Shown here: positions 377 to 50,989 of the stretch, piece after piece
Layout of the letters: every line of letters begins with the position of its first letter
How positions within the stretch are numbered: position 1 is the stretch's first letter
From: Malacoraja senta
Lineage: Eukaryota
DNA: 64,000 bases
Direction of reading: 5' to 3'
NCBI GenBank assembly: GCA_038087875.1
Contig: CM075988.1
Coordinates: 17,424,001-17,488,000, forward strand
Position numbers and translations under genes: made by a program
The notes under the pieces: generated by a model
Told to the model about the DNA's origin: nothing
What the model saw: the letters and a program-made list of their open reading frames with translations, nothing else
The model's database searches: none

Positions 377-1619
377 CTAAACCGCTGTTGTATTTAGTTA
401 GTCCCATTCTGGTCATGTCTAATTTTTCTCTTCCTACTATTTGCTAACAGCTATCCTGTTCCGATATCTCGGCTGCTAGATACAATGTCCAGTTTTAGTC
501 AGTTATGACATTCATAAGCACTTTCAGGATCTCTGAGATAGGAAAGGGGCTGAAAGAAGTGGCAGGAACAGAAAGTTTCCAAAAGTGATCAATAAGCATT
601 GTCAAAAAATATGCTTTGTGTTGGGCCAAAAGGCCTCTTTTTATGTCGTATGACTCTATGACTATTATAGTGTACAAAAACATGAGGGGAGTGGACTGGA
701 TGTATGCACAGATACTTTTTCCGCAGGTTTGGGAAAGCAAGAACAAGGGGCAACTTTTTCACATGGGTATATGGAATGAGCCGCCAGAGAAAGTAGTTGA
801 AATAGGGACAATAACAAGATTTAAATGATAGACACGAAATGCTAGGTTAAATGCTGAAGAAGGGTCCCGACCTGAAACGCCACCTATCCATTTCCTCGAG
901 AGGTGTTGCCTGACTGTTACTGAGATGTTGAGTTACTTCAGAATGTTGTGTCTATCTTTGGTATAAACCAAATATCATTTAAGCCTCTGCAGTTTTTTTT
1001 ATTGTAACATTTAAATGATAGTTTGACAGTTACATGGATAATAAAGGTTGGAGGGATACGGATCAAATACAGGCAAATGGGACAAGCACAGATGGGTATC
1101 TTGGTCAGCATGGGCAAGTTGGGCTGAAGGGCCTGTTTCCAATCTGCATGAGTCGATGACATCTCTGTGTGTAGACTACAAATGCTAACAGGGTGGGCAC
1201 CAGGTATGGAACATGTTGTAGCCAGAGAGGGTGGGGAAACAATTAATGCTTCTAAAAGGTTGTTGGAAAACTTTAAAATCAAGTCGAAGATGAGATCTCC
1301 TTTCAACATCCCAACGAATGCTAAACCGAATGTTGATGCATTTCCAGGCCGAGAGTCAACAGCTGATTAACGCGAGCTGGCAGGCTCTTTCATTAGCTCT
1401 TAGACACTGCTTTTCCTCACTCAAACGTATTTTAAACACTTCAATTAGATGCCAACAGCTAACAAAACCTCAGTTCATGAGCAGATCTTGTTACACGATT
1501 AGCGTTGTGCGCGCGAGGAAGATGACATCATTGTGCAATGCTGGAAATAAAGCTGCCAACAATGACCAACTTTGCAGAAACTGATAACAGCAAACACCTC
1601 CCACTCCCTCCATAACCCC

Positions 1620-2360
1620 TTCTGCTCACTCTCCACAACACCCCCCTCCACACCACCCTACCCCCACTGTCCACAATCCCCCCACCCCCCACACCCCCCA
1701 CCACCCACCCCCGCACTCTCCACCCCCCCCGCACTCTCTACCACTCCCACACTCTCCACCCCCTGCACTCTCCACCCCCCGCACTCTCCTCCCCCCCCCC
1801 CCCGCACTCTCCCCCCCGCACTCTCCTCTCCCCCCCCCGCACTCTCCACCCCCCACACTCTCCACCTCCCCCACACTCTCACCCCCCACACTCTCCACCC
1901 CCCACACTCTCCACCCCCCACACTCTCCACACCCCCCCCCCGCACTCTCCACCCCCCCCCGCACTCTCCACCCCCCGCACTCTCCACCCCCCCCCACACT
2001 CTCCAACCCCCCCACACTCTCCACCCCCACACTCTCCACCCCCCACCCCCCCCCACAGTCTCCACCCCCCGCACTCTCCATCCCCCCCCCACACTCTCCA
2101 CCCCCCCACACTCTCCCCACACACTCCACCCCCCACACACTCCACCCCCCACACACTCCACCCCCCCACACTCTCCACCCCCCCACACTCTCCACCCCCC
2201 CACACTCTCCACCCCCCCCACCCACACTCTCCACCCCCCCCCCACCCACACTCTCCACCCCCCGCACTCTCCACCCCCCCACCCACAATCTCCACCCCCC
2301 GCACTCTCCACCCCCCCACCCACACTCTCCACCCACCCACCCCACCCCCAACACTCTCCA
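1620..2360. repeat. C-rich minisatellite, unit about CACTCTCCACCCCCC(C/G), 15-18 bp
   Basis: Dozens of tandem cactctccacc(c)n units are directly visible. Confidence 0.95.
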
Positions 2361-2470
2361 CTGCCCCTTAACTTTGTAATCTCCCCCTGCATGAATCCGC
2401 TAAGATATTTATTTCGAACTCAGTCATTGAAAGCCATTTCTCCAAACCCTTTAAACTTTCCAGCTCTCCA

Positions 2471-2715
2471 TCCTGACCTTGGGTGCTGTCAGTACGGAGT
2501 CTGTATGTTCTCCCTGTGACCGCGTGAGTTTTCTCCGGGTGCTCCGGTTTCCTTCCACACCCCAAAGACGTACAGGTTTGCAGGTAAATTGGCTTCCGTA
2601 AATTGTCCCGAGTGTGTAAGATAGTGCTAGTGTAAGGGATGATCACTGGTCAGCGCAGACTCGGTGGGCCAAAGGGCCTGTTTCCACGCTGTATCTCTAA
2701 AGTCTGAAGTCTAAA
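2471..2715 (+). mobile_element. HE1-like SINE, 5'-truncated
   Basis: gggtgctgtc...ttttctccgggtgctccggtttcc...gggccaaagggcctgtttccacgctgtatctctaa. Confidence 0.85.
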
Positions 2716-3431
2716 GAGTGCTGTCTGTGTGGTTTGCACGCTCTTACTTTGACCATGTGGGTCAATTTTAAGTGCCCCAGTTACCTCCCACATCCCAAAA
2801 ACATGTGGATCGGAAGTTTAAATGGCTGCTGCAAAATTGCCCCAAGGGTGTTAGTGAGGGAATGAATCTGGGGTGAATTAATTGAACGATGGGATAGAAT
2901 AATTTAAGGTTAGTGTAAATGAGTGGTTGATGGTCCCCTGTGGACTTTGTGCCCCAAATCTATGAATATCGTGCCATCAAATGTTTTGCAGGGTGAATGG
3001 ATTACCCATATTTTAGTTTGTGCTATCATTTTATTTCCATCATGTCGTCTATGGCCCCATATTCCATAAACACTCTCGATTCAAATACATTGCCCTGACA
3101 CAATGTAATTACAAATAGTGTTCCAGAGACAATCCTTCCAGTGGGCGACAGCAGAATAGATTCCAGAAGATTGATGGTGAGGAGGTGTGGTATGATTCAT
3201 GATACGGTATAAATGTATAGCCGTACTGCACACCAATTAGTACAATGCCCTGCTGGGCTAAATGCTTCACCCTTTACACAATTCACGCTGGTCTGACCTG
3301 GAAAATGTGTTCTGCTGAATGAAAATGTAGGGCAAGCATTTCCTTTTCACAGCAGTGCAAAAAAGATGCCTGTTGCTCCACTGAATAGAAAATCCACCAG
3401 TGTTCAGATATCGTGAAGCGATAGTGTGGTA

Positions 3432-7100: not shown

Positions 7101-9469
7101 TAAAGAACTCTTCCCTTGAAGAGAATTTGCAGTTGAGCAGTAAAATGGTAAAACAAGGAACTGCAGATGCTGGTTTACAAAAAAAAGACACAAAGTGCTG
7201 GAGCAACTCAGCAGGTTGGCCAGCATCTCTGGAGATCATGGATAGGTAACATCTGGCAGGACTGATGTAACATTGATTGAGTGAGAAATATTGGGCTGCC
7301 TCACCAACTGGAGATTCACTCCTGATAGTTTTCAGCAATAATGTTTAATGAGGCGATTGCTGTACTTCCAATTGTTCAATCGACAGAGTCTCTGGCCAGC
7401 TTCATGTTCGCCAATCATTGGCACACACGGGAAGCCCTGCGATCGACCCCTGCCTGCTGATCATATGCAATGCTTGGTCATCCCAGGCGATTGACCGGGA
7501 AACCCTCGCAGCAAACATGATGGCTGCAAACTATCAGTGAGACAGGAGTCAGGTGGGGCAACCCAATATTGACCCCTCAATCAATGTTACGAGACCAATG
7601 TATTGAATTATTGTCAAACTGGGAGTTTACGATGTGCAAGTTGACCATTGGGGGGGATCTCAATTGACCAACTCACTGTTTCCTTCCTTGGGATATACTG
7701 TAGCATTGACTCATTTTAAATCCCCTCCCCCACCCCCATCCCTATAAGGACAAGTAAAAAAACATCAGCAAGAATTTCCATGCTAATCCCCGAGCGGGTA
7801 GAATACATTTAAAAGGGCAAACATTATCTATCGGCTGCTTTCCCTCTTTTAAAATGTGTCAGGACCTTCATGACTGGAATAAAGCTCAGCGCCGTATACC
7901 ATTCATGGCTTCTGAAAGAAAACATTTTACTCAACTCCATCTTAGATCGGTGACCCCTCATTTTTAATGGTTCTTCCACCAGAGGCAACATGCTCTCCAC
8001 GTCCACCTTGTTAAATAATTGAAGATGTCTCAATTCTAAACTCTACTGCATACAAGCCTGATCCTTTGGTCTTTGTACTAATGTCGCTGATACTAACATC
8101 TTCCATATCAGCCTCATCATCCGTTTCTGGTGTAACACCTTATCTGAAAATCAGCTCTTGTGGCAGCGTGGCACTCTTAAAAGTATTAGAAAAGAGATTC
8201 AGCTTGGATTTTGGACTCACATCTTGAATTGATACTTGAATCTTCAAACTTCTGTTTTTGACAATCCAAGAGCCCCAAGGTGCTCCCACAAGCACAAGCC
8301 TTTCTCTGGGCGAGCTCCCGAAAATACTGCTGTATTTGTGAAGTCTTAATGAAAAGACATTACTATACGTTACTAAGACGTATCTGATTAACTAAGACTA
8401 TCACTGGCTGCCTCCAGGGTCAATGAACTCTGGTGCTTGTATATGATGCAGCATTAGACAATGCGATTGTCAGGGATTAATTTCTAGGTCTGGACGCTGC
8501 CTTATAAAACCTCCAGAAATGTGCCAGACAATATTGGCATTCCTAGCATTGAACCCTTGCTCAGTTCATGAAAAAATAAATTCAACAAGATTCCCCACTT
8601 TAAGTGTAGGAAGGAACTGCAGATGCTGGTTTAAACCGAAGATAGACACAAAAAGCTGGAGTAACTCAGCGGGACAGACAGCATCTCCAGATTTAAGTTC
8701 TGTGTTTTAGTCAGAAAATCATACAGCATTGAAACAGCTACTTCGACACAGCTTATCCATGCCAACCAAGAGGAGAACTGAAGGACTTCAATTTAATTCC
8801 CTCAAATCTCTCTGGAGATCACCTGGTGTACCAACATTTGACATCAGACAATAGTACTGATTTCCACCCCCCACCCCCACCCCCATCCTCCCACAGCTTT
8901 CGAATTCACCCGAGTCATGGTTTCTGCTGTTAGTAACTGGGTTACTGCACATCATGTCACTTCAAAACAGCAATGTATTTTGTTGCAATGTGGTTTGTTG
9001 CAGAACATCTAATCCCCGAGATGATGGGAACCGCTCATCCCTCCATTCTCTGTTTGTCATAACAAATTAGCTGTAATTTAATTGCCTTTTCAACCATTTC
9101 TGGCCTTCTGCTCTCCCTCCAAAGCTGCTGAAACATGTTGCGGTTACATGGGTAACAGGCCTTGCCCAACTGACCATTCTTCATGGGCAAGAGGTCGCAT
9201 GATACTAGACCCATCCTATCAATGGCAGATTTACATTTTAGAGTCATACAGCATAGAAACAGGCCCTTCAGCCCATCAAGTCCAGGCCAACCATTGTACC
9301 CATCCACAATAATCCCTTTTACCAGCAAATGATCTGTGGGTTTCCATGCTTTAGCATTTCAAGTGTTCACCCATATACTTCCCAAATTATGTGAAAGTAC
9401 ATGCCTCCATCACATGTAGCCACCTTCTGGGATCCTCAGATTCTCTCTTATTCCTCAATTTAAAACCTA

Positions 9470-10262
9470 TTCCTGGTTAGGTGTTCCATACTAGAACATC
9501 CCAGATGTCCTAATTCTTTAGGGAATGGGGGTTCCCCTCTCCAATCATAGATGAGGCAGTTACTCATCTCCTCGGCACCCCGCAGCTCCGCCCTTGCTCC
9601 CCCTCCCCCTAGTCACAACAGAGACAGAGTCCCCCTAGTCCTTACCTTCCACCCCATCAGCTGTCGCATACAACACATACCTCCTCCAACCTCATCTACT
9701 GTATCCGTTGTTTAAGATGTGAACTCTTATATATCGGCGAGACTAAACGCAGACTGGGCGATTGTTTCGCAGAATACCTTCGCTCAGCCCGCCTGAACCA
9801 ACCTGATCTCCCGGTTGCTGGACACTTTAATTCTCCTTCCCATTCCTACACAGACCTTTCTGTCCTCGGTCTCCTCCATTGTCAGAGTGAGGCTAAACGC
9901 AAATTGGAGGAACAGCATCTCATATTGCGCTTGGGCAGCTTACAGCCCAGTGGTATGAATATTGATTTCTCTCACTTCAGATAGCCCCGGCATTCCCTCT
10001 CTCGCTATCCCTCTCCCACCCATCGCAATAGCTTCTCATTTTCACCCTACAAACAGCTTACAAATGGCCTGTTTCCTTAACCATCGTTACTTTTTTGCAT
10101 ATCTTTCATTCATTGTTCTTTATCTCTCCACATCACCGTCTATATCTCTTGTTGCCTTTATCCCTAACCAGTCTGAAGATGGGTCTCTACCCAAAACATC
10201 ACCCATTCCTTCTCTCCAGAAATGCTGCCTGTCCTGCTGAGTTACTCCAGCTTTTTCTGTCT
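9470..10262 (+). mobile_element. Penelope-like element 3' fragment with GIY-YIG endonuclease remnant and pLTR
   Basis: 9679-9984 reads TSSNLIYCIRCLRCELLYIGETKRRLGDCFAEYLRS...PVAGHFNSPSHS...KRKLEEQHLILRLGSLQPSGMNIDFSHFR*, i.e. GIY-YIG with an internal CxxC. It is followed by a 3' UTR and a decayed hammerhead motif near 10172. Confidence 0.88.
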
Positions 10263-10494
10263 ATCCTGGTTATATATATATATCTGTTATACATTTTATA
10301 GCACTTTCCAGAACCCCAGAACAGCACAAGAAATGTACCAGTCAATTAAATATTTCAGGACTGCAATCACTTAAAGGAATTGTGCAGTAGTCAATTTCTG
10401 CAAACAAGGTTCTTGCTATCAACAATAGTTTCAGTTCACACAAATATAGTTATTTAGTGTGTCAATTTACTATTAGTTTAATAGTACTGAATTA

Positions 10495-11044: not shown

Positions 11045-11369
11045 CTAACAAGGAAAGGAATGTCACTCTAGGGGGCCACATGAGTGGCAATGATGTGTAA
11101 GAAGGAACTGCAGATGTTGGTTTACACCAAAGATAGACAAAATGCTGGAGCAACTCAGTGGGACAGGCAGCATCTCTGGAGAAAAGGAGTGGGTGACGTT
11201 CTGTGTCTGAAGAAGGGTCTGACCCAAAGTGAAACTCATTCCTTCCCTCCATAGTGGCAATGTTGCAGTGTAAGGAAAAAGGGAGATGCTAACAACACTG
11301 ACCATGTTGAATATATAGACACTGGGAAAGATTTTTGCATGGTTTTTGTTTTGAATTCTGGTATTGCAT

Positions 11370-11670: not shown

Positions 11671-13237
11671 AACTGGTGACGCAGACCAAGACCTTCCTAT
11701 CTGACAAGACTGATGCCTCATCCTATATTGCATGTAGCTCCATTCAATCACTGAGGCATCATTTTGATTCTGAGACCCAAGGGACAGGACCAACGTGCTG
11801 AAATCGCCAACTCTATTTACGATTTAATCAAACTGCATTTGGCTGGCCTGTGGTTCCTGTGATGAATAATGCTGCTTTATTTTGCAGTGAAACAGACTAA
11901 TGGCACACAAACTAACAGCACACAAAAACTGAAGCAGAAAAAAACGCGGATGTTAAACTAAAAATGATAGAAGGATCCAGAATGTATACTGGTCTAATCA
12001 CAGGAAATAATCCAAGCAGAAATGCCACATTTTAACACTTATTTTATATTGGAAGGAGCAACCAGTTCTATTTCAAAACATCTCAATGCAGTGGATATTT
12101 GAACCACGTTTGATACTAAAGGAGGTGATCAAAGCTTGGTCAGGGATGCAGGTTTCAAAAGACCATCTTAAAAGGAGGAGGTTGGAGTAGTGGAAAGGTG
12201 ATGTGGGGGAGTTCCATTGCTTGGGGCATTGGTAACCTTCAAGTCATGGCTGCCCTAGCAAATCAAGGAGACTAGAATTAGTGTGTAGAAAGGAACTGCA
12301 GATGCATGTACTGTATATACCAAAGATAAACACAAAGTGCTGGTGTATCTCAGCCGGTCAGGCAGCATCTCTGGAGAAAAAGGATGGGTGACGTTTTGGG
12401 TCGGGGCCCTTCTTCAAACTCAAGAGAGTCAGAAGAAGGGTCCCAACTCGAAACTTCACTCATCCTTTTTCTCCAGAGAAGCTGCCTGTCCAGCTGAGTC
12501 ACACCAGCACTTTGTGTCTATCTTTGAGGTTTCAATGAGGGTATCCCGGTATCTGAGAGGGTTGCCAAGTTGTGGAGGCTGCAATGATGAGAGGTTGAGT
12601 GAATGGCTTGAGTGGTATTGCAAATTTAATTATAAAATGGGTATTGATGGTGAACAACTTGTGCTCCATTTCATCTCATCCCCACAGAGCATGCAACCCA
12701 CATCAGAAGTTTTAACATCAACCTGAACAGGTCAGACCTTAATTTCACATGACAGACCCTCAGCTGGGTATAGTCCAACATTACTCTAGAAATCAAACCA
12801 CTATTTTCTGATTAGAAATGTAATCAACTAAACTGAATTGATTTTCATCCATAACTGATGCACACTTCCTGAGCATTGAAGTGGGGCCCTATTAATGGAC
12901 AGCTATATCTTGTCAGACAAAAAACAATAAGAACACACGGTCAATTGTTCTACCTCACCTGCCAGTTTCAACTCGGATACACAACAGTGCATTTATCATT
13001 TAATGCAAAGAGGGTATAAAATGTCTGCGGTGTAACGTCATTTGCATCCTAGATGATTTACATCTTCTGAAGTACGTTGCATTCCAGTTCACCATCTTTA
13101 GCAGCCTCTGTTCAACCACCACAACCCCACAGTAAGACCAAGTTTAGGAAGTTACCATCACCCTGTGACCATTTTACAACACCACAGATTGGTTTAGTAA
13201 CTAAAACACTTTCCGTACGGCACCTTTTTAAAAAATA

Positions 13238-15744: not shown

Positions 15745-17651
15745 AGCTTGCTGCCACTGTTGGGAGCTTCTGCATTTAAGCTCAGCGTGCAGTTTCACAC
15801 AGTTGTCGGTCTGTGAACACAAACAACACTGATGCCACTGCAAATTTCCCCGAGGCAGAAAATAAATGCATTTACTGGTTTTTCATGGTCATATGAGTTG
15901 AGTAATGAGCAAGACGTTTTGTCCATGCTACGGTACTGAATTGCTGAGCGGTTTCACTAAGGCAAGAATAATTTGGAACTGAACTTCTTGGTGTTGCATT
16001 GATTCTGGGAGTCCTTGTAGCTTCCTTATCTTAAAAGGGATTTTTTTTTTTTTTTTAACTTTAATACTTTTTTTATAATGGCTACTTCGGTGGGTATTTA
16101 AATTCAGCTGTATTGGTATGGGATACTAATCACATATAGAGATGTGTCTTTCCTTCCCAAAGGACATCTGAAACTAGGTGGAGCAACCGCACAAATATTG
16201 CCATTGCAACATAATGCAATAAAAGGAACAAGTCAGGAGTGTGCTTGAATAGTATTGACGGTAAGAGGAACCGAGGTCTGAGGGATGACGGTTTACTGGC
16301 CGATCTAAATCGAGGTGATGGCTGGAGGCCTTGCAACAGACTGGGGCTCAACTGGGTCAGGTGCTGCTCCAAGGGATGGAGCCCAAAGGACCGGACTTGA
16401 CCTATAGCGGCACGGAATGGTGGAGGAAGCCTAAATCTTCCCATATCCACGCCAAGCCTGCAACGTCGCCAAGCCAATGAGCATTTATGACCAGCTGCAC
16501 TTAAAGCAACTTGGACTTTGAAAATTGCGCCTAAACCTGGCGACTCATGTATATGGTCTCAGTGGACTAGTTCTACATACGTTGCATTTAATCTGAGATT
16601 ATGCTTATGTACAGTAATAATTTACTGAATTGTATGCAAACAAAATCACTGTACCTCGGTACATGTTATAATAAAGAACCATTGACTTGCTTAGGTAAAT
16701 GTAGGGTTTTCAGAACTTAATAAGCATAATGCCAGACAAGATAAAACATGTTGTTTGGGTTTCCCCCCATGTACGACCTTAAAGATTCACTCCCCTCACC
16801 ATCCATCCACCATACCATTAAGTAGCACAAGGATTGCAGCTGCTCAGAAACACGTGGAATAAAAATGCAGGAAAAGCTCAGTTGTTCCGTCAACATGGGT
16901 GGAACAAGAAACCATTAACGTTTCAGACTGAAGACCCTTCCTCAGTTCTGACGAAGGCTCTTCCACCCAAAATGTTGACCAATATTCTTTCCACAGATGC
17001 TGCATAACCTGCTGTGATTCATCAACATTTTCCGTTTTTTTATTCTAGATCATGCAGGTTAATTGGCCACTGTGACATGTCATTAGCGTGTAGGATGCGA
17101 AACTGGGATAATATTGAACCAGCGTACAATGTGGATTTTGTGCTGAGCGAAGACTCAGTGGTCAGAAGGGCTTGTTTCCATGCTGTATGTCTAAACTAAA
17201 CTAGGCTAATCTGTAGTTTTTACTTCATATGTCTCCTTTAATTCACCCCCATCTTTGGTTCCTTTGTTGTCACTGGGTCAACATTTGCTTAGTAACACTC
17301 CTATGAGAAATCATGCTACATTATAAATGATATGTATTAAAAAACTGCTATTTGTTCAAGGTACCATCCTCACTGTCAATAATTCAACTGGAATGACTGG
17401 GAGCAAGATACTTTGAGGTCAGCAGATAGTGAGGAACAGACGTCCATTGGTGTAAGCTGTGGCATTCACTATTAGCTGATGTTGCTTTGATCTTCATATC
17501 CATCCAAGCCACCTGAGCAGCCAGAAGGAGCTTCATTTTAATACCCCAAAGAGGAATGCGTCCACCAATGAATCATGCCATTAACACCACGTCAAACATC
17601 TGCCTTGCTCTCATATTCAAAGTGGAGTTTGATCCCACAATCTACCGATTA

Positions 17652-17960: not shown

Positions 17961-19379
17961 CTGTTTGATGGGAGCTGCCAGCTGATCCAAACTAATGAAA
18001 TGAAGGTATTGCACTTACTCACACCCATGGTTTCACACCAATAACAATTGAATTCTTCACTATAGAAGATATGTTTTCCCCCATCACCTTTAGGATCATA
18101 AAGTGATCCTAAATTAGGAATGGGAATCAAATCTGAGGTGCCCAAACTGTAGGTAAATCAAAATGAAAGTCCAATATCCAAAGCTGGTGTTTAAGCTAAG
18201 CAAGATAATGGATTTTCCACCAAGAATAATATCAAACAATTCAATAGAGACTCGGTCACCTAGATGAAACAATTATAGGATCAGATGCCAAACTTAAAGT
18301 GATGAAGGTATGAAACAGTTAAAGTATGACATTTATAGAATTACAGCATTAGTCTGAGGAAATCAGTCAGCAAGTAGATAATTCTTTTAAATAATGGTGA
18401 TGAGGCCACAATTCTTGGAGACACAAGGAACAGCAAAAATACACAAAGTGCTGGAATAACTGAGTGGGTCAGGCAGCATTTGTGGATGGAATGGACAGGC
18501 GACATTTCAGGTTGGGACCTTTGTATTTGTTTGCAGTCAGCTTCCAGATAATAATGTATGGCACTTTGTAACAAATTATTGGTACACAACTGCTCAATTT
18601 TTTTCTCACCTTTCAACTTAACACTACAGAAAGACACATGTTGTGAAATCAAGTTAGGCACCAAGCCAAGCAAATGAATACAGCAATCAACTAAAAGATG
18701 AGCATTTTTGTCATGTGGCACTCTATGCAGCTCTGCATAATAACTAAGGAAAAATATTTAATTAAATTTGAAATTCAGTCATGGGAGTTCAATTAAAATT
18801 AAGTTGCGGACAGAGCTCTTTTATGAGAGCACACTTAGCATTAGTCAAATCATAGGACAAATTGTCCTAACTCATTTTTAGTCATATTTTACAGAAAACA
18901 CTTTGCAACCTGCACAGTTTGGCAAAAAGGTGCCAAAATTGGGAACTCTGACGCCTACTGTTATATGCCTTATGTACTGAAGGAGCCAAAATTGTGCTAT
19001 AAATTGAGCTGGATGTCATCTTGCCTCCATTATTAGTGCGCATACATTTAATACCTTCCTTGTGTATGCAGAGGAGGCATTGTTAATTAAGATGGCGCCC
19101 ACACCTGGCGACTCTTTGCGTGCTGGTCCCGGAAGTGGATTTGCTTTCATACATTACAATCTCTCCACTCTTTTAAATCTTTATTTATCTGTACAATGTG
19201 GATGGCTTGATTGTAATCATGTATAGTCCTTTCACTGACTGGATTGTCTGCAACAAAATGCTTTTCACTGCACTTCAGTACATGCGACAATAAACTAAAC
19301 TCATTCCAAGGCCTCAGTACACACTCCAGCCCGTGCTCTCTTATATTTGCACATCTGAACATACATTAACAGGGAGGAA

Positions 19380-19460
19380 GGGTTTCAGCCCAAAACGTTG
19401 CCTATTTCCTTCGCTCCATAGATGCTGCTGCACCTGCTGAGTTTCTCCAGCACTTTTGTC
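19380..19460 (+). mobile_element. Short PLE pLTR insertion with 13-bp TSD
   Basis: taacagggaggaa at 19367-19379 and 19461-19473 flanks a 5'-truncated pLTR. Confidence 0.8.
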
Positions 19461-20237
19461 TAACAGGGAGGAATAATGAAGAAAGGTCCCGACCCGAAAC
19501 ATCGCCTATTCATGTTCTCCAGAGATGCTGCCTGATCCTCTGAGATACTCCCAGCAGTTTTTTGCCTTCATTGGTAAACCAGCATCTGCAGTTCCTTGTG
19601 TCATCACGAATAATGCTCTCATCAACATTATTTTAAGGAACTATTAACTATCGACATGGTGTTTGGTGGTTGATTTCTGCAGACCAATGCTGCAATTTAG
19701 CAATTGTGTGTGGTATTTTCCATTGCTTAGGTTGTAAAACATTTTGGCCAGCACTGAAGATTTTTCGCTAACATCTTCGTGTTTGCCGGATGTGGGTCCA
19801 TTAGTAAACTTGGAACTTGGCTTGAGTGTGAGAATGAGAAGTGGGGCGGCTGAGTTGCTGTAAGGTTAAGCAGGAATGCAGAGGTGTTCAGAGCGCCTTA
19901 AGTGCACAAAAGTGGCAGGGAGAGGCAAGGAAGCAGGAACTGGAAATTAACTAGCAATCATCTCTGAAATCTACCACCCACATCAACCACACTGCAACCT
20001 TGGAGCCAAGCAAGGACTGCAACGGTGACCATGGCCATGCATTTTCTGGTGACAATGGCAATACACAAATCTGACACGCACCGTACAGCACCTGATATGG
20101 AGATAGTTGATGTTTTCTTTAAATAATGTTGATGAGGGCATTATTTGTGGTGACACAAAGAACTGCAGATGCTACATTACCAACAAAGATTTTTTTAAAG
20201 TGCTGGAGTATCTCAGAGGATCAGGCAGCATCTCTGG

Positions 20238-20380: not shown

Positions 20381-21729
20381 AGGCAGCATCTCTGGAGAAC
20401 ATGGATAGGTGACTTTTCGGTTCAGGACCCTTCTTCAGTCTGGTGAAGAAATTGCTCGAACGCTTTGTGTCTTTTTCGTAAACTAGCATCTGCAATTCTT
20501 ATTCATGTTGACATCCTGCAGTTTCTTGAGGCTTTTGATTGAAAAAAGATCCAATGACATTTTATTTCCTATTGTGAGGGACCATTGCATAAACAGAACA
20601 TACAAGTTGCTGGGATGAGGTTTATCTCGGTTCTATGGTACTAATGAATGCACACATAATGTTTTACCAGAACCATATTTCATCATTGCCTGACACCAGC
20701 ATAGAACGACTGCATAATGGAGATTAATAGATTTCAATGCCTGGGGCCTTGACAACTGTAATGATGTCCTACTTATATGCCAGTCCAATTTGAATAATTC
20801 CCAGTGCAGGCTCAGCGGAGCTACTGCATAACTAGTGCAGATATGTTAAAATATTGGGTTCTTATTGATGTATGCAGTCAACCAACAGTACAATTTGTAA
20901 GTGTATTGATTCTGCTACATGAACACATTGCCTCTTCACTGCCATCGCCAAATCTATTTTCTGTGCTTTGGCCTCCCAAATGCCTTGGTAGCCTCTCCAC
21001 ATCCTCACCATACCCTGACTTACTAGATCCTGACAGACCCCAACAAACAATCATTCATGAGAAGGCAAAGCAAGATGTGACTGGAAGGCTCCCTTCATTT
21101 GGAAAATGTTTCCAGTGGCTCCTGGGTTTATGCCAATCTTAGATCAGGGACTCTGTTCTGTTCTCATTGTGCAATTCTATGTCAACCCAAGGAAAGTACA
21201 CATAATCTGTGATCGGTAAACTAAACGAGGAAAACACTCATCAGGTCAGGCAGCATCCGCGGAAAGAAAAACACTTATCCTTTCACTTCTGAGACCCTTC
21301 ATCAGAACTATGAAAGAATGAATGAATGAATAAAGACTGCAGATACTGAGCAAAGAAAATAGTGCTGGAATAAATTAGCAGGCCAGGTGGCATCTGTGGA
21401 AGGAAATAGACAGACAACATTTTTGTTCTCTCCCTACTAGTCTAGCCTAGCCTGCTGGTTCCAACTTGAACATTTCAGGTTGGGACCTTCTTCAGGAGAA
21501 AAGTTACCTTCAGCTGCAGAGAAGGTGAGGGAGAAATGGGTAGAACAAAATGAACACCAAAGTGATGGGATGAGCCTAACTGGTTTAATGTGATAGCGTC
21601 AACTACATTGTACTTCTTTGTCTGTGATATGCATTGTTAATACGTGGGTTGTAGAACATGCCATGCAGTCTAGGCTAGGCTAGTAGAGAGAGAAAAGCAT
21701 AGCCAATAATTACAAATGGATGACAGATA

Positions 21730-23582: not shown

Positions 23583-23709
23583 GTTTAAGAAGGAACTGCA
23601 GATGCTGGAAAATCGAAGGTACACAAAAATGCTGGAGAAACTCAGCAGGTGCAGCAGTATCTATGGAACGGAGGAAATAGGCAACGTTTCGGGCCGAAAC
23701 CCTTCTTCA
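23583..23709 (-). mobile_element. Short PLE pLTR insertion with 17-bp TSD
   Basis: gacataaa(g/a)tttaacct at 23566-23582 and 23710-23726. Confidence 0.85.
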
Positions 23710-23712
23710 GAC
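23680..23712 (-). ncRNA. Minimal hammerhead ribozyme motif, intact core
   Basis: GT-CTGAAGA-A-GGGT-TTCG-GCCC-GAAA-CGTT-GCC. Confidence 0.7.
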
Positions 23713-29220: not shown

Positions 29221-29253
29221 GGTGACGTTTCGGGTTGAGACCCTTCATCAGAC
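29221..29253 (-). ncRNA. Minimal hammerhead ribozyme motif, intact core, in PLE pLTR (about 29121-29253)
   Basis: GT-CTGATGA-A-GGGTCTCAACCC-GAAA-CGTC-ACC. Confidence 0.7.
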
Positions 29254-29596: not shown

Positions 29597-29599
29597 TAG

Positions 29600-29992: not shown

Positions 29993-31299
29993 ACATTCTT
30001 CCAACTCCCACTTCACAGCTACTTCTGTGACCCTCTCCCACTCACATCTTTCTTGTTCGTTTCTGACTCACAAACAGTACTCTGGAACTGAAACCTGTCA
30101 CAATCTAGGGACTTGCTGTACAAGGGAATTTTCCAATTGTCTAAAAGCGCCTTGTCCTTAATAATCTTGTGTACCTCAAGAACTCATCTTCTCGAGTATT
30201 ACCTTCCCACGCTAAAAGGCCTAATTTTCCTGATTCAGTCTTATCAACCTACTAATTCCCTCCTAATCACACACGTTTCAAGGTAACCTTATCAGCAGTA
30301 CCCAAGGCAATTACAACATCACTCTGCCAGGCTGAATTGAGGAAGTGGAAGCGGAGATCTTTAAACATGTCACCAGGTTTGATGTCTGGCCCTAAATGGT
30401 CTTAATTTCAATGTTTTCCAATTACATAAATGCTTGTTAAAGTCAATTATTGGTCCTGAAGTAACTTCCTGTTTTGTCATTTTAAGCTAAACTAGTAGAT
30501 ATGGACCACATTCTGGTTAAAAAAAACATATGGACACCACATTCTGATTCATTACTAATTCTTCTCAGTTCTAAGGACTGACCTGAGACATCCATCCCTC
30601 CCCAACCTAGTCATCCTACGAGTTTCACTGTCGTCCTGCTTAGTTTCATTGCTTGCATCCCTCACGGGTTATTGATTGGGGACGATCAGCCATGATCGCA
30701 ATGAATGGCTCGAAGGGCCGAATGGCCTCCGCCTGCACCTATTTTCTATGTTTCTATGCACCCCCTCATTAGCACCTTTTCCACAGCCAACAATGGACCA
30801 TTGTGGGCTCCACCTTTCCTTGATCATCAGTGCTGGCTTTGATTTGTTCTTTTCATATCTTTCATTCATTTCTTCTTTGTATCTTTTCATATCTCTAGTT
30901 TCCCATCCTCTGACTCTTAGTCTGAAGGTGAGTCTCAACCCGAACCGTCACCTATTCCTTTTCTCCAGAGATACTGCCTGACCCGCTAAGCATTTTGAGT
31001 TTATCTTCAGTGTAAACCAGCACCTGCAGTTCCTTCCTACACCTCATGAGCATTTCCAACGTTCTCTGTTATCAAATTATCCCTGGCAACAGTCCACTAC
31101 TAATCACCCAAAATCAACATTTTTATAGCAACAGTTTAATTAGTCTTTACCACATTGCTATTCATTGGAGTTTGCGTGCTTCTTTTGGTGGTGTATTCTC
31201 CACATAGTTGGTTTTGACTCGTATCAACTCCAACTTTAGCAAGAACCTGGACCCACTAAACTTGTCTACTGCTGCATAAATCAATCTCTCTGGCTCTAT

Positions 31300-32490
31300 A
31301 CTCTACATTGGACAACATGACCATGTTCGTCAGGCCTTTGCTCATTGACTACAGCTCAGCATTCAACACCATTATCCTCTCCAAACCTGTAATCAATCTG
31401 GGTCTCTGCAAATCACTAAGCAACTGAATCCTCAACTTCCTCATCAGCAGACCACAATCAGTAACAATTGGCAACAACATTTCCTCCTCGATAACCATCA
31501 GCATAGAAGCACCTCGGAGCTGTGTGCTCAGTTGCCTGTTCTACTCACTCTACACCCATGACGATGTAGTCAAACACAGTTCCAACACCATTTTAAAATT
31601 TGCTGACACCACCACCATAATTGCATGAATTGCGGGTAATAATGACACGGAGTATAGGAGGGAGGATGATAATCAGATTCAATGGTGCCAGAACTACAAC
31701 AACTTCCTGGCATGCAAATCTCTGAAGGTATGTCCTCGACCGAGCACATTGATGCAATGATAAAGAAAGCCGATCAACGCCTTTACTTCCTTAGAAAAAA
31801 AGGTTGAGGAGATTAAGTATGTCTCGACCCGAAACGTCACCTATTCCTTCCTTCCATAGATGCTGCCTCACCCGCTGAGTTTCTCCAGCATTTTTGTCGA
31901 CCTTCGATTTTTCCAGCATCTGCAATTCCTTCTTAAACATTCAGTATGTCGACGACTACTCTCTAACTTCCACAGGTGTACGGAGAGAGCATATTGGCTG
32001 GTTGCATCACAGTCTGGTTCAGAGACTCAAATGCCCAAGGACGAAGGCAATTACAAAAAGTGTTATATACTTCCCAGTCCATCACAGGTACTGACCTGCC
32101 CACCATCAAATACATGTTTACAAAGGCGCTGCCTCAAAAAGACAACCAACATCAACAAGGACCTGGCCACATTCATATTTCACTCCGACATTTGGGAAGA
32201 AGAGATATGAGTCTGTAAACTGTGATCTCCAGGTTCAAGTACAGCTTCCACCCAACAACCATCAGGCTCCATCTAACACACTACAAAACACCGACTAAAG
32301 TATGACCTGTCTTGGTCGCACTAAGGACTTTGGGCTTTTTGCATTAACATTAGGGTTTCTAATATTGATTTTTTCTTGTTTATTATGTTATCTATGAGTA
32401 CTGTGTTTACGGGCCTATAATCCTGCTGCAGATAAGTATTTCATTGTTCCGTTGTCAGTACATATGACAATTAAACATTCATGTCTCTTG
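31300..32490 (+). mobile_element. Rex/Babar-like LINE RT remnant, interrupted by a PLE pLTR (31824-31938)
   Basis: DYSSAFNTII, ..CVLS..YSLYTHD, KFADTT and ESILAGCITVWF motifs. The PLE insert has TSD att(a/c)agtatgtc. Confidence 0.85.
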
Positions 32491-32682: not shown

Positions 32683-33325
32683 GTGTAGGAAGGAACTGCA
32701 GATGGAGGTTTACACTGAAGATAGACACAAAATGCTGGAGTAACACAGTGGGTCAGGCAGCATTTCTGGAGAAAAGGAATAGGTGATGTTTCAGCTCATG
32801 ATCTTTCTTCAGACTGAGAGTCAGGGAAGAGGGAAACTAGAGGTATGAAAAAGTTCAGGACAAATCAGGTGACCAAGCACCGATGACCAAGGTAAGGTGG
32901 AGCCCACAATGATCCATTGTTGGCTGTGGAAGAGGTGATAACGAAGGGATATATGGATGCGATCAGTGGAACTAGCAGGACTACTAGAGCAGGGGATGGA
33001 TGAAGAGAGAGGAAATGCAAGGGTTACTTGAAATTAGAGAAATTAATATTCATACCGCTGGGTTGTAAGCTGCCCAAGCAAAATATCTATGAGGTGCCAT
33101 TCCTCCAATTTGCACGTGGCTTCACTCTGGCAGTGGAGGAGGCCCAGGAATGAAAGGTCAGTATGGGAATGGGAAGGGGAGTTGAAATGATTGGCAACCG
33201 GGAGATTGCATAGGCCAAGGTGAACTAATTTCCCTCTCCCCTGGCTCTCAGTCTGAAGAAGGGTCTCGACCCAAAACGTCACCCACTCCTTTTCTCCAGA
33301 GATGCTGCCTGACCTGCTGAGTGAC
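32683..33325 (-). mobile_element. 5'-truncated PLE (GIY-YIG end, UTR, pLTR) joined to an inverted pLTR
   Basis: Reverse translation LPVANHFNSPSHSHTDLSFLGLLHCQSEATCKLEE. An opposite-strand pLTR lies at about 33225-33325. Imperfect TSD tcaaactt(t/c)acc at 32667-32678 and 33326-33337. Confidence 0.85.
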
Positions 33326-33650
33326 TCAAACTTCACCTGCCTTCAAATTGCAGAGCTCCATTTCCCAATCCAGATTGCGCAGTGATCAGATTCCACAAGA
33401 GGTCATAAAATCCATACAGCTTTTAGGTAATGCATAATGAAAAGTGAACAATCTGACTAATGGATGGGAATAATTCTTAGTTATTTTTTGGACTCAGTCC
33501 AATCAACTTAAAACCAAGGGTAAGAATGTGATTTGAGAACACAAGATTCTTCAGAAGCCAATTTCCTCTCAGTCCATTAATGGCTTCTATTTATTTTGTT
33601 CTAAGAATATAGCTTTGGTCTTAATCCATCCCCCTCAGACCTAATTCTTA

Positions 33651-35081: not shown

Positions 35082-35222
35082 AAGTGCTGGAGCAACTCAG
35101 GGGACAGGCAGCACGTCTGGAGAAAAAGGATGGGCGACGATTCGGGTCGGGATCCTTCTTCAGTTCCTCCAGCACTTTATGTCTATCTTCGGCATAAACC
35201 AGCATCTGCAGATCCTTTCTAA
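35082..35222. mobile_element. Inverted PLE pLTR pair with 15-bp TSD
   Basis: acac(g/t)aatacacatg at 35067-35081 and 35223-35237. Confidence 0.78.
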
Positions 35223-35583: not shown

Positions 35584-35774
35584 TCAAGAAGGAACTGTAG
35601 ATGCTGGAAAATCGAAGGTACACAAAAATGCTGGAGAAACTCAGCGGGTGCAGCAGCATCTATGGAGCGAAGGAAATAGTCTGAAGAAGGGTTTCGGCCC
35701 GAAACGTTGCCTATTTCCTTCGCTCCATAGATGCTGCTGCACCCGCTGAGTTTCTCCAGCATTTTTGTCTACCT
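35584..35774. mobile_element. Young inverted PLE pLTR pair with perfect 14-bp TSD
   Basis: aggagtcaaaatat at 35570-35583 and 35775-35788. About 60-bp near-perfect inverted arms surround a hammerhead core. Confidence 0.9.
35679..35711 (+). ncRNA. Minimal hammerhead ribozyme motif, intact core
   Basis: GT-CTGAAGA-A-GGGT-TTCG-GCCC-GAAA-CGTT-GCC. Confidence 0.72.
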
Positions 35775-41172: not shown

Positions 41173-41195
41173 ATTTTTACCTCTACACCAAACAA

Positions 41196-41359
41196 TCTCC
41201 ATATCACCGTCTATATCTCTTGTTTCCCTTTCCCCTGAAGGGTCTTGCCCCAAAACGTCACCTATTCCTTTTCTCCAGAGATGCTGTCTGTCCCGTTGAA
41301 TTATTCCAGCATTTTGTGTCTATCTTCGGTTTAAACCAGCATCTGCAGTTCCTCCCCTG
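41196..41359 (+). mobile_element. PLE pLTR insertion with 10-bp TSD
   Basis: caccaaacaa at 41186-41195 and 41360-41369. Confidence 0.78.
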
Positions 41360-43440: not shown

Positions 43441-44875
43441 CTATACCCCAGGGAGCTATACTTAGGAGGTTTGCTATTCCATTAAATTGGATGTTGAGCA
43501 GTTCATTAAGGTACTTGGTCCACTTTTGGCTTCACTCATAGAGATTTCAAAAGCTTTCATGGAGATTGTTTCTTTACCATCAAGAAGCACAAAGGCACTT
43601 AGGGCATCGAGGCATCAATATCTCCAAGTTCTCCTGCCAGTCACACACTTCCCTGATCAAGAAGTATATTCATGGGTCTAAATGTTAGAACTCTACCCAA
43701 TACAATGTAGGAGTAACTTCATCAAAGGACTGCAGCAGCTGAGAAAGATGAGCACAATTAGGGATAGGCAATAAATGCTAGCCTTCTCATGGTCCAGATC
43801 TCAAAAGATAAATGTGAAAAAAAAAGTCTTCCTTCAGGCAGTATCTTACATTGGTCCATATTAAACTTCTTCCTCCTTCTCCAAGTTCCAACCTCCAAAC
43901 TAACATTTTAAACCCAATGCATTCCATGTTTTTTGGATCTCTTCTTCCAAGAAAGCAGTCTTTCCTAGTTTGATGTTTTCTGAAAATCGTACTGAGTTTC
44001 TCAAACCACGTCATGAATGAGAATTAAGAAAAATAAAAGCCTCATTAATTTTCTCTGAAGAGTCATGGAATATTTGCACATTTCAATTTTTTTAACAGTC
44101 TTTCCTTCTTTAAGAAAATGTATGTCCACTCCTAGAAGAAATCAAAATTTCCCAAAGCTTCAAAAATATAACTATTTTCTGCAAAATGTCCCACATTTGG
44201 CCAACACAAAAATAAAGTCAGAACGGATGTTCTCCTTCCAAATATCTGTCTCAAGATATTTTGCACTAATTAATCATCCATTATTAATGATAGATTAAAC
44301 AAAGGATTATGTTGGATCAGACAATAAAGCACCATATCTTTGTTCACTTTGGTTGATTCTAATTGAATCTTGTCACAGGCCAGATATTAAGAAGTAGCCC
44401 TTCAAATGAAGGGCATAGGGGTAATGGAACTCACTCTTCCACAAGGCCAAAAACAATTTTGACTGAATTTCACTGAGCCAGGACACAAAGCTGTGGGATT
44501 AAGACACGCAAATGAAAATATGGTGGAAATGAAAAGGCAGATATTGTTAAGGGTGCATAGACACAAGGAACTGCAAATGCTGGCTTACAACAACAAAAAA
44601 AGACCCAAAGTACTGGAGTAACTAAGCAGGTCAGGCAGTATCTCTGGAAAATATGGATGGGCGATGCTTTGCGTTGGGACCCTTCTGCAGTCCTGACCCA
44701 AAACATTGCCTATGCATGTTCTCCAGAGATGCTGCCTGACCTGCTACATTACTCCAGTACTTTGTGTGTTTTAGTGTTGGGTATGAATAGCTTACTTTTA
44801 TCTTTATGTATCCTGGGAATATATCAAAATCACCATCATTAAAGAAACAAAGCAGCAAAACGAAATGTCCCTAAC

Positions 44876-45104
44876 CTCTTTTCTTCCAACAAGGACCCTC
44901 CCTTATAGAGTAGGAGATATCGTTGAATTCTATGTCCACTGCAGGGCGCTTGGGGAGGTGGGAGAACCGCTGTGCCTCTGTGATATGGTTTTCCACCTTC
45001 TTCAGGTGTGTGGTGAGGAGAGGCGCGTCCTGGGATCCTCCATTGCATACAGTGTCTTCGAGAGCAATTGTCACACAGCTAGCATCAGGTGGCTTTTCAG
45101 CCAT
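44876..45104 (-). CDS. ABCG4: ABCG4 first coding exon (N-terminal 76 aa plus 1 nt, phase-1 donor)
   Basis: Translation MAEKPPDASCVTIALED...[49 protein letters not shown](G) matches the recalled vertebrate ABCG4 N-terminus (MAEK...[47 protein letters not shown]). A polypyrimidine tract plus CAG acceptor puts the exon start at 45113 (9 nt UTR). The donor is AG|GTTAGG with GT at 44875-44874. Confidence 0.93.
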
Positions 45105-46746: not shown

Positions 46747-46916
46747 GTCTGAAGAAGGGTCTCGACCCAAAGCATCACCCATTCCTTCACTCCAGAGATG
46801 CTGCCTGTTCTGCTGAGTTACTCCAGCTTTTTGTGTCTATCTTCGGTTGAGTCTGAAGAAGGGTCTCAACCTGAAGTGCTGCCTGTCCTGCTGAGTTACT
46901 CCAGTTTTTTGTGTCC
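46747..46916 (+). mobile_element. Tandem head-to-tail PLE pLTR dimer with two decayed hammerhead cores
   Basis: gtctgaagaagggtctc occurs at 46747 and 46851. Confidence 0.78.
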
Positions 46917-47139
46917 ATTATGTATTATGATCTGGTTCTCTCCTAACCCTCTGGTACTGTTCAGCAGACTCACAAGGTCATGGAATTCGAACTAAAATAT
47001 TACATTATTTTTGGCAAATAATCATAACCGCAATGCATATATGTTAACACATGATGGACATAGAATTGCAAGTCTTCCTTCCCGAGTCACTGGGAAGATG
47101 GAAACCATGCATCAAGGAAAAAGTCATCAGTACTTCATA

Positions 47140-48731: not shown

Positions 48732-49044
48732 GGTTAGTTTTAGTTTAGAGACAGCGCGGAAACTGGCCTTTCAGCCCACCGAGTCTGAGCCGACCAGAGA
48801 TCGCCCCATGCACAAACACTATCCTACACAAACTGGGGACAATTTACATTAATACCAAGCCAATGAACCTACAAACCTGTGCGTCTTTGGAGTGTGGGAC
48901 GAAACTGGAGATCCAGGAGAAAATCTATGCTGGTCACAGGGGAAACGTACAAACTGCATACGGACAAGCACCCGTAGTCAGAATCAAACCCAGGTCTCTG
49001 GCGTTGTAAGGCAGCAACTCTTCCGCTGCGCCACTGTGCCGCCC
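48732..49044 (-). mobile_element. HE1-like SINE
   Basis: Family consensus in reverse. Confidence 0.88.
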
Positions 49045-49546
49045 ACAACTTGAAGATGTGTTATAATGACCATGAGAGATTAACAGGTGCCAGAAAGAAA
49101 CCAATCAACAGTTAGTACACTTTGCCAGAATGCACAACTGACACTTGGAACCTCGTTGCATTTCCATTTATTGCGATGAAATAAGTAACAAGATTCATAA
49201 GGTCAAAAACCACATGGGCTTTAGGACAAACCTTTTTCTCCAGAACATATCAACCTAATTTTATCCATGATCATCTGCTCCAAGCGCAGCGGTTGAGAGC
49301 CCCCCCCACCACTTCTCCCTATGATGTGCAAGAGTGCTGGCTGCCAATGCACTCACTCCCATATTTCCAGTCAGTGGTCCAGCTGACTTCAAACCATCTG
49401 GCAGATGACGGATACAGCTCAAATGAACAGACCAATTTCTCCACATTCATCTTTTGTCATTTGTACTTTGTCCTAACCTGTGTGCCAATGGGACCGTCTT
49501 TCCTTCATGAATGTTCAGGTAATATTTCAAGTCTGAGTCAATATTG

Positions 49547-49580
49547 AGCCTGAAGAAGGGTCTCGACCCGAAACGTCACC
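49547..49580 (+). ncRNA. Minimal hammerhead ribozyme motif, intact core, in PLE insertion 49531-49646
   Basis: CTGAAGA-A-GGGTCTCGACCC-GAAA-CGTC-ACC. TSD aatatttcaa at 49521-49530 and 49647-49656. Confidence 0.7.
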
Positions 49581-50989
49581 CATTCCTTCTATCCAGAGAT
49601 GCTGCCTGTCCCACGGAGTTACTCCAATATTTTGTATCTATCTTTAAATATTTCAACAAGTTATGGAGTCATAGTCATAGTGATACAGCATGGAAAAAGG
49701 CCCTTCGGCCCACCTCGTCCATGCCAATCTAGATGCCTTATCTAAGTTAGTCCCATTTGCCTGTGTTTGGCCCAAATCCCTCTAAACTTTTCCTATGCCT
49801 GTACCCATCCAAATGTCATTTAAATGCTGTTATAGTACCTGCTTCAACTACTGCCTCTGGTTGACCCTTTTATATACCCGCTACCTCTGAGTGAAAAGGT
49901 TGTCCCTTAGGTTTGTATTAAATCTTGCCGCTTTCTCCTTAAACATTTGTCCTCTTGTTTTGATTCCCATACCTTGGGTAAAAGTCTCTATGCATTTCTT
50001 TGTTCCTCTCTGCAAGTTATGTATTTATTCACGTGAAACTCAAGTCTCTACCTCTGTCCCAAGGCTCCGAGACGGTCTTATCTTTCAGATTTCTCTTCCT
50101 CCTCAGAAACTACAAGTTAAACATTATTCAGTCTTGATCATATTCTGCGATAGCCTCCTTAAAGCTCCAAAAGATACACATCAATCTGTATTTATCCGAA
50201 TGATGAGTATCTTGGAGAGGAATTTCTTCCCCAAAGACCACTAAACGCTTCCCTTTAGGAAGACACTGGGGAGATATAACTAGCAGTTAAAGCAACTGGA
50301 GAATATTTAATCATTTCCTCGTAAAGGAAGCATCCTAAGAATCCCAAAACCCTACTGCAACACTTCAAAGTGCAAACGAACGCTCCTCCCCACTGACGTC
50401 TGATTCAATCTTACAGAGCTAGCTCCAGCCCCTGCTAAAACATGGCGATAGTGAGTCCTTGCTCAACTATTTAACAGAGAACAGCATTTCCGTTCGGGTA
50501 AGTTACTGAGCAAGCTGACACCAGAGATTGTGCATGTAGTATATAGGGGAGTCTAATAGTTGTGGCAAATCAGACAAACTTGAACAAATCCCATGGAGAA
50601 ACTCAGGACAATAGTGAGAATATGGAACTGCTCCCATTTATTGTTCTGAAGGCCAACGGGATGGAACACCTTTAATGGAAAGTTAGATAAATGTATGTGT
50701 TAGGAATGAGGGAATAGTTAGGACATGATAAAGGGATTTTGTGTGGAGTATAAACACGTGATCTGTTTATGGATGATACATTCCAAGGCTTAAACATCTG
50801 TGTATACACATTCATGCAGGCTGACCATTTGGCCCCTCAGGCCACTTCTGCCATTTGATAAGATCATGGCTGACTTAACTCTATAACATTGGCTTTTCAT
50901 TCCCAACCTACTTTCAAACCCTTCCTTCTCAAGCATGTATCTACATTCAACATTCAAAGAGTGCTTCCACCACCATTTCCATTGAGTCC

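Follow-up and report, generated by a model that had tools for sequence, protein, structure and literature searches.

Short pLTR copies of a Penelope-like element in the Malacoraja senta genome often share a 5' boundary at the front edge of a minimal hammerhead core

Hammerhead motifs in Penelope-like elements (PLEs), their occurrence as dispersed single motifs, tails, inverted arms, and stubs of the pseudo-long terminal repeat (pLTR) have all been published before. In the available excerpts of two accounts of endonuclease-containing (EN+) PLEs of the Neptune clade (PMC8557442, PMC3846280), one open reading frame (ORF) codes for a reverse transcriptase (RT) with a C-terminal GIY-YIG endonuclease and a cysteine linker, pLTRs and partial tandems are present, and insertions show an adjoining inverted 5'-truncated copy, a 30–40 bp tail at one end and target-site duplications (TSDs). 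A CX2-5CxxC linker between RT and endonuclease is given as the mark of Neptune, and the part played by the hammerhead in the life cycle of PLEs is still called unclear (excerpts of PMC8557442). Here, we examined the short hammerhead-bearing copies of such an element in a 64,000-nucleotide stretch of the Malacoraja senta genome (GCA_038087875.1, contig CM075988.1, positions 17,424,001–17,488,000; hereafter the window), together with 1,237,400 randomly placed bases in 26 blocks. The copies stop preferentially at the 5' edge of the hammerhead core, a boundary that belongs to the pLTR where copying starts and is seen on the first pass only.

The minimal hammerheads that metazoan PLEs carry in their pLTRs (Cervera & de la Pena 2014, PMC4209133) resemble the motif studied here, in the excerpts available, in their core boxes, the extra base 9/10.1, G10.1-C11.1, palindromic 15.2/16.2, the lack of helix III and the prevalence of single dispersed motifs derived from truncated PLEs. 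For Poseidon PAc of Anolis carolinensis, the excerpted report (Frangieh et al. 2024, PMC11167929) describes priming at a pair of internal sites by which the tail is delimited, extension of both DNA strands, and insertion from uncleaved RNA with no read ending at the cut site, all of which have counterparts in our data; PAc also needs the ORF-start region on its RNA. Animal non-LTR retrozymes, as far as the excerpts go, share with our copies a non-coding nature, a type I hammerhead motif, an origin from PLE pLTRs and larger TSDs (PMC7229834); their defining traits are tandem units, canonical ribozymes and circles (PMC7229834; bioRxiv 10.64898/2026.07.22.740005), and dispersed 'monomers' are mentioned in the preprint. 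A literature search that had subscription journals, Repbase and Dfam outside its reach returned no description of the present stubs, nor of a core-edge boundary that acts on the first pass.

We located copies with a unit profile built from 17 window copies, numbering the unit so that hammerhead C3 is +3 and the cut site +30/31. Window counts refer to bases 1–56,703, with the duplicated last 7.1 kb left out. The profile matched 43 times in 31 loci, bearing out the more than 15 core-sharing repeats reported by a first-pass annotation of the window, and 30 of the 43 matches reached the core 5' edge. Reversed sequence gave no profile match, against 692 in the real sequence of the window and the 1.24 Mb sample. 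The sample held 499 unit loci (one in every 2.5 kb, covering 5.0% of bases), which extrapolates from its 1,237,400 bases to about 7.8e5 loci genome-wide; set beside the Neptune-clade PLEs, a density of some 0.8 million loci and about 5% of bases, again by extrapolation, is very high. With 5.5 loci per 10 kb, the window lies within the range of the sample blocks (0.6–9, median 3.9) and is therefore ordinary for this genome. The earlier figure of one unit per few kb in an intron thus stands for the density, the intron being only probable. Sample and window together comprised 530 loci: 389 singles, which include arms of widely spaced pairs, 110 head-to-head pairs and one tail-to-tail pair.

The source of the unit can be read from an intact parent element, L173 (G000:C8:4005134-4012134), which has a 5' pLTR, a 1,221-aa ORF starting from Met, and a 3' pLTR in direct orientation to the first. 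The ORF contains RT, a C-x4-C-x2-C linker and GIY-YIG (E 6e-6 for RVT_1 and 0.002 for GIY-YIG, each scoring under its Pfam cutoff) and had no match among PDB sequences; the C-x4-C-x2-C motif also stands ahead of GIY-YIG in L081 and others. Most of 18 further top GIY-YIG loci have an untranslated region (UTR) of 120–200 nt between the GIY-YIG stop and the unit. UTR or ORF sequence extends upstream beyond -8 in 22 of 30 ORF-start loci, a partial tandem arrangement. Judged by its sequence context, the unit, with its hammerhead motif and tail, forms the pLTR end of a PLE that is putatively of Neptune type, its clade being assigned from the linker; the linkage in L173 and the core boxes agree with the earlier identification as a PLE pLTR with a minimal type I hammerhead motif. 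The Met of L173 lies about 33 nt past the unit's tail, behind a stop, so the unit is the 5' UTR of the next ORF. This differs from the excerpted description of PAc (PMC11167929), where the unit is the ORF start and the linker is not of Neptune type, and it led us to reject the unit as an ORF N-terminus. Only 2 of 301 long-end matches reach the ORF start; the region that PAc requires on its template is thus missing from the stubs, which are probably dead ends.

We scored the 5' end of each copy by its upstream homology to all other copies, with random flanks as the control, which left 376 scorable singles. Among these, 286 reach +12, and 176 of the 286 stop between +12 and -7. The stop hazard is 0.048 per nt at -7..+12, compared with 0.0066 at +13..+40, 0.012 at -8..-40, 0.0033 at -41..-160 and 0.005 at -161..-400; setting the -8..-40 interval (0.012) apart, the core-edge hazard is 7–15 times that of the others. 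Such a concentration in a 20-nt window does not fit the plain, if extreme, 5' truncation that had been offered as one origin of the units. The core-edge stop is alike in copies with the long (69/113) and the short (67/104) 3' end described below, and in three age classes; the same boundary for both 3' ends means that it is set by position and not by length. UTR or ORF sequence lay behind an internal deletion in 7 of the 176 short singles.

The boundary recurs in sets read in other ways. Where TSDs defined the 5' end, and no reference sequence was involved, 11 of 17 ends fell at -2..+6. For a young family we took 30 loci identical to its unit, picked for holding the core, and set aside the parent and one duplicate: of the 28 distinct loci left, 16 stop at -3..+3 and 12 beyond -100, with no end at -4..-100. 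A second family has 16 of 26 ends at -8..+3 after two duplicates were dropped, three of them read by eye beside an inverted arm. A YCAGT motif is conserved upstream of the core at the boundary in all six sequence clusters (see below), though their UTRs differ. No spike of 5' ends occurs at the hammerhead cut site, where only 3 of 389 singles start (+30/+31), which indicates uncut templates and rules out hammerhead cleavage as the source of the 5' ends; inserted copies span the cut site uncut.

A different picture emerged where the RT meets a pLTR a second time. We collected 30 loci with a pLTR ahead of the ORF start, and their 5' ends are smoothly spread: six lie 3' of +12, one is at +6, and the interval -3..+3 has 0 of 23 (Fisher P 6e-6 when compared with the first-pass loci of the young family). 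In seven of the 30, the element extends for more than 1 kb into another ORF copy and on beyond the end of the sequence at our disposal. The boundary is therefore not a general RT block met every time, and recombination between pLTRs (solo-LTR formation), starting from such smoothly spread ends, cannot make a fixed end. This second-pass comparison upholds the earlier proposal that short copies were inserted as such and not left by deletion, for which TSDs alone were a weak argument because solo-LTR recombination leaves TSDs too. In the larger sample, TSDs scoring at least 10 were called in 37 of 244 singles, and in 5 of 244 with swapped flanks. A first-pass-only 5' end at the front edge of the hammerhead is not described in the excerpts on Neptune-clade PLEs (PMC8557442, PMC3846280), nor is a fixed cDNA end at the core edge reported in those on PAc (PMC11167929).

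The 3' ends of the 389 singles are bimodal, at about +97 in 131 and about +127 in 161, with 59 between and 38 shorter; the 30 nt separating the two positions constitute the PLE 'tail'. Contigs from other organisms stop at these two 3' positions as well, and one of them shares the 5' position. The inverted copy and one-end tail known from PLEs are present here in the 110 of 530 loci that are head-to-head, and in the 68 pairs with both ends classifiable, 60 combine a long and a short end, 6 are long+long and 2 short+short (expected 34/21/14, P 1e-9). Both arms belong to the same sequence cluster in 73 of 90 inverted pairs, compared with 20 by chance.

As to the ribozyme itself, the motif fits the minimal type I PLE hammerhead (CUGANGA/GAAA/UH, a 4-bp helix II, the extra base 9/10.1, G10.1-C11.1 and palindromic 15.2-16.2), with a CG palindrome standing where helix III would be. 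Helix III is absent, and helix I has 2 bp, like the D. virilis variant and unlike the 4–5 bp of other minimal hammerheads in the excerpts of PMC4209133, shows a one-sided U-A/U-G change and is not predicted to form. An Rfam scan of the window returned no hammerhead family even at E<=5; its microRNA-like matches were fold-back pairs below gathering scores and were discarded. The hammerhead call made from the window holds, with these corrections. Stem pairing is kept in 93% of cells, with one two-sided change that 250 of 500 shuffles matched (12 sequences). Predicted folds place the core purines against nearby pyrimidine tracts and include a conserved body-tail helix (5.5–7.8 expected pairs in the four youngest clusters) in place of the hammerhead, which was not predicted as the ground state of the monomer (z -0.29 to +0.36 in two copies, -1.3 to -1.7 in three). 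By analogy with other minimal hammerheads, which in the excerpts seen need a dimer or a protein (PMC4209133, PMC11167929, PMC6765202), cleavage of the unit would need one of these as well.

Core and stem II are complete in 100 of 328 aligned copies, a selection that favors core matches, and by extrapolation from this fraction the genome has about 1.5e5 intact motifs, against 4,000–9,000 in coelacanth and Xenopus according to the excerpts of PMC4209133. All six clusters agree at 10 of 11 core columns, and the one that varies is G12, altered by CpG decay in one old cluster; this uniformity suggests selection in the source elements. Once inserted, the cores decay like dead DNA: G12, which is essential and lies at a CpG, is changed in 29% of copies. 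The lower core mismatch in copies (6.4% vs 8.6%) was not accepted as a sign of selection, given the A/T-rich core, the biased choice of copies and the loss of G12.

We think it somewhat probable that the units are short cDNAs that arise by internal priming and run off at the RNA 5' end just ahead of the core. An internal pLTR promoter would start a linear RNA at or near the conserved YCAGT, which we take to fit the initiator consensus. The element's protein would prime at one of two fixed internal sites (likely about +97 and +127) inside the first pLTR of this RNA, meet its end after 95–130 nt and leave a dead stub; priming in the first pLTR would account for a product of exactly that length. 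Stubs are likely inserted singly by the element's own RT and endonuclease, and a dimeric complex that primes both DNA ends, one per site, would yield head-to-head pairs with one tail. The hammerhead would be carried uncut and, once part of a stub, is probably inactive and subject to neutral decay. Copies of more than unit length need multimeric or circular RNA, and long and tandem copies may derive from such RNA, which has no end at this point; a longer-than-unit template was proposed for long copies in 2014. Parts of this scheme have precedents in the excerpted literature, where the Penelope pLTR holds an internal promoter (PMC2377424) and PAc, whose tail is delimited by its two internal priming sites, extends DNA on both strands and uses uncleaved RNA for insertion (PMC11167929).

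Several observations weigh against run-off at an RNA end. The RNA 5' end at the boundary is inferred, since contigs cannot show starts, and the ends are spread over about 8 nt with many copies including -1 and -2, which is at odds with one unique start at the A of YCAGT. An extra G, as a cap would leave, gives a weak signal (12/29 vs a 27% background, P 0.07), and we do not rely on it as proof of a capped RNA end. YCAGT after a pyrimidine tract suits a 3' splice site equally well, as in the partial description of D. virilis Penelope. With none of 23 full-length copies ending at the boundary, the scheme needs a second, longer or circular RNA pool known only by inference, and the second-pass loci, selected for their identity to the ORF start, represent a single young family. 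Moreover, TSDs were called in only 37 of 244 singles. A single RNA pool would suffice if the PLE protein, or a spliceosomal complex seated on the adjoining upstream pyrimidine tract/YAG, clamped the pLTR used for priming and about 60% of cDNAs were released at the 5' edge of the clamped domain, while a pLTR met later would be unbound and read through, an account that we regard as possible though doubtful. The telomerase template boundary is a model for such bounded cDNA synthesis. Clamping would cover both the spike and its absence on the second pass (0/23), would tolerate the spread of ends and the weak cap-G signal, and could draw on the predicted body-tail helix of the four youngest clusters. 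In partial sources, PLE RTs are sister to telomerase RTs, and the PAc hammerhead folds or cleaves only with protein, so that protein may contact the region (PMC11167929). Against it, the UTR upstream of -4 differs among families while the boundary stays the same, and 5' truncation of PAc RNA merely gave a shorter product in the excerpted experiments (PMC11167929). By +3 the RT would already have melted the hammerhead, whose 2-bp helix I has no predicted stability, and the barrier would have to be a putative protein.

An independent non-autonomous family, SINE-like (short interspersed nuclear element) or retrozyme-like, in which stubs that keep the promoter are transcribed and mobilized in trans, possibly via small circles, was the other origin offered in the first-pass annotation; we find it unsupported and consider it unlikely. 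Fixed 5' and 3' ends with TSDs do resemble a SINE, pLTR sequences sufficed for trans mobilization in Adineta according to the excerpts of PMC3846280, and one cluster is weighted to short copies (50 short vs 15 long). When the 328 core-and-body copies were clustered, however, the six groups, 4–17 differences deep, each held short, long and inverted copies, and no short-only cluster appeared at K=4 or 6; at K=8 there was one gap-driven cluster of 13 members without long copies. With 97 positions at 4–18% divergence, the power of this clustering is limited and a small short-only lineage would be hard to see. A SINE-like lineage with diagnostic changes and re-copied junctions was likewise not found within that power: inverted junctions are unique in 60 of 61 cases, the sole repeat being a local duplication. 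None of 449 Tandem Repeats Finder (TRF) arrays in 1.29 Mb holds two cores, and same-strand neighbors, at 14 of 530 loci, never form an array. Together with units of 97–127 nt in place of 170–400, a minimal ribozyme and the lack of an Rfam hammerhead, this sets the copies, known here from DNA, apart from non-LTR retrozymes as described in the excerpts of PMC7229834, and no separate lineage emerges from the mixed clusters. The missing cut-site spike and the lack of a downstream ORF start in the stubs also count against mobilization in trans. The first-pass annotation had held that a smooth truncation profile would speak against an independent family; the profile is not smooth, spiking to 0.048 per nt at the core edge, and it is on the other evidence that we reject the family. 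Random 5' truncation or pLTR-pLTR recombination, with the spike an artefact of missing UTR references, seems highly improbable. Heavy 5' truncation is a known PLE trait (excerpts of PMC8557442), old subfamilies may have no reference, and 7 of the 176 'short' singles do hide UTR or ORF sequence, but the spike also appears in the TSD-only ends and in the young family, whose UTR is unambiguous, and the spread-out ends of upstream pLTRs could not yield a fixed end by recombination.

Spliced or back-spliced templates were also considered and rejected. In L173 (1246-1255), and at the matching site of L008, the Met overlaps a strong splice-donor-like site kept in two subfamilies; with the pyrimidine tract and YAG ahead of the core, it gives the pLTR the look of a cassette exon of about 160 nt. 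We found no spliced or back-spliced form of the pLTR among 477 copies, where leader-to-core joins were chance matches of 9–10 nt, and the donor-like site was not joined back to the core in any of the joints listed from contigs. The upstream element sequence in 7 of 176 short singles was read as internal deletions.

The window itself displays the full range of these copies. A direct motif scan for CTGA..GAAA found five complete cores, the four already named, at 23687-23710(-), 29228-29251(-), 35681-35704(+) and 49550-49573(+), and one that had been overlooked, at 16921-16945(-); at each of the 12 positions annotated as decayed, the profile matches a copy whose core or stem II is damaged. Stand-alone copies with 10–17 bp TSDs, also described previously, were recovered as 115–191 bp inserts flanked by TSDs with 0–1 mismatch at nine window loci. 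The intact stand-alone units lie at 23583..23712 on the minus strand (127 bp, long tail-bearing 3' end, 17-bp TSD), 29121..29253 on the minus strand (long 3' end) and 49531..49646 on the plus strand (short 3' end, 10-bp TSD). Further plus-strand units are a TSD-bounded copy at 832..1005 (16-bp TSD with 1 mismatch, decayed core at 854), a unit with about 155 nt of upstream UTR, a decayed core and a long 3' end at 30762..31042, one truncated within stem II at 31824..31938 (12-bp TSD), and one with about 35 nt of UTR and a decayed core at 41196..41356 (13-bp TSD). Two adjoining same-strand units of different subfamilies occupy 19374..19599(+). At 46747..46921(+), two units lie head-to-tail, and an internal deletion affects the second; their head-to-tail junction was found again only in the duplicated block. 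Two old units of opposite orientation 500 bp apart (19519-19652 and 20102-20237) have about 50 nt of common sequence past the tail, which is due either to inverted duplication at this place or to an old subfamily whose 3' end extends further.

Inverted pairs span both strands. A young fold-back pair at 35584..35774 carries the intact core at 35681-35704(+) within an exact 14-bp TSD, and an old pair at 16831..17041 carries the core at 16921-16945(-). A head-to-head pair at 11096..11252 has a tail-bearing minus arm, a core-bearing plus arm and a 13-bp TSD, and in another at 12287..12527 both arms reach the core edge. The remaining pairs are at 20381..20499 (decayed), 24758..24936 (long and short 3' ends, 16-bp TSD), 25301..25480, 35082..35222 (15-bp TSD) and 44563..44774 (old). 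A long fold-back palindrome at 39318-39428 has no relation to the PLE unit and is possibly a miniature inverted-repeat transposable element (MITE) or another two-armed insertion.

Units following GIY-YIG remnants had been reported at two places, which we confirmed (9679-9981(+) and 33027-33207(-)), and an older third remnant was added at 21760-22035(-). The first belongs to the 3' part of a PLE ORF at 9319..9981(+), with RT-thumb and linker remnants ahead of GIY-YIG (tblastn to the intact element E 3e-40; PF01541 E 0.05, below cutoff); after a 3' UTR of about 190 nt it is followed by a pLTR unit at 10171..10266(+) with a short 3' end and a decayed core that has lost G12. The second forms part of a long minus-strand arm at 32683..33207, made up of tail, unit (32687-32814), UTR and GIY-YIG remnant, and facing it head-to-head is a short plus-strand arm at 33225..33332 whose core is without G12. 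The older ORF remnant extends from thumb/linker to GIY-YIG at 21760..22547(-), with unit fragments at 21234-21495.

An exon of an ABCG1-like ABC transporter, not part of the element, lies at 44874..45089(-) (E 5e-18). No further ABC motif was found in the window; a single ABC exon fits a very large intron, and most of the window is probably intron of this gene. The block 4020-11116 is repeated at 56904-64000 with 98.8% identity, across a gap of 200 N (56704-56903), and loci 46810 and 49550 are each found again 52.9 kb onward. This apparent tandem duplicate of about 52.9 kb, which includes the ABCG exon, is probably an assembly haplotype duplicate, and window copies inside the two blocks are therefore not independent of one another. 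Among other repeats, a second abundant kind is a dispersed repeat of about 300 bp, probably a SINE, whose copies are 70–80% identical to each other (81-381, 2467-2717, 5529-5853, 6791-7104, 10493-10782, 13236-13491 and about 10 more). Fragments of the RT 3' part of long interspersed nuclear elements (LINEs) fall into two families, one at 40614-41170 and 54771-55318 (93% to each other) and the other, which we take to be CR1-like, at 36683-37185, 38177-38676, 29607-30010 and 3425-3883. A C-rich minisatellite of period 16–35 occupies 1627-2349.

Some copies outside the window have features of their own. Residues ~180-500 of the L173 ORF, ahead of the RT, form a Pro/Ala/Thr-rich low-complexity region with internal repeats, which makes the ORF unusually long (1,221 aa). 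Within the corresponding proline-rich N-terminal region, 615 bases (L173:1290-1906) are skipped in contigs of another organism (two runs); the skip has CT..AC ends (GT..AG on the opposite strand) and is either a deletion variant or antisense splicing. In L184, the 3' UTR is expanded into a short-period C-rich minisatellite where the pLTR would stand, and L085 contains an open 339-aa transposase frame within the PLE copy (4835-5851, +), presumably a Tc1/mariner-like transposase.

About 5% of the genome, introns included, thus consists of hammerhead-bearing stubs, and annotation could mislabel these as SINEs, MITEs or microRNA hairpins. Genome statistics here extend beyond the test tube, giving a position-fixed end on the first pass, no end where the hammerhead would cut, and a strict asymmetry, long with short, in two-armed insertions. 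Many near-intact L173-type copies indicate a young family, and the intact young L173, combined with the first-pass-only end, makes three mechanisms testable: an RNA start site, a protein-set boundary, and circular templates. More tentatively, the roughly 0.8 million stubs may be the fossil record of a bounded-template intermediate of PLEs, of a strong-stop or telomerase-like kind, for which the literature searched gave no description. A dimeric RT would prime two DNA ends from different sites and usually stop at the front edge of the hammerhead; only multimeric or hammerhead-circularized RNA would allow the whole element to be copied, and the ribozyme module may thereby decide between a stub and a live copy.

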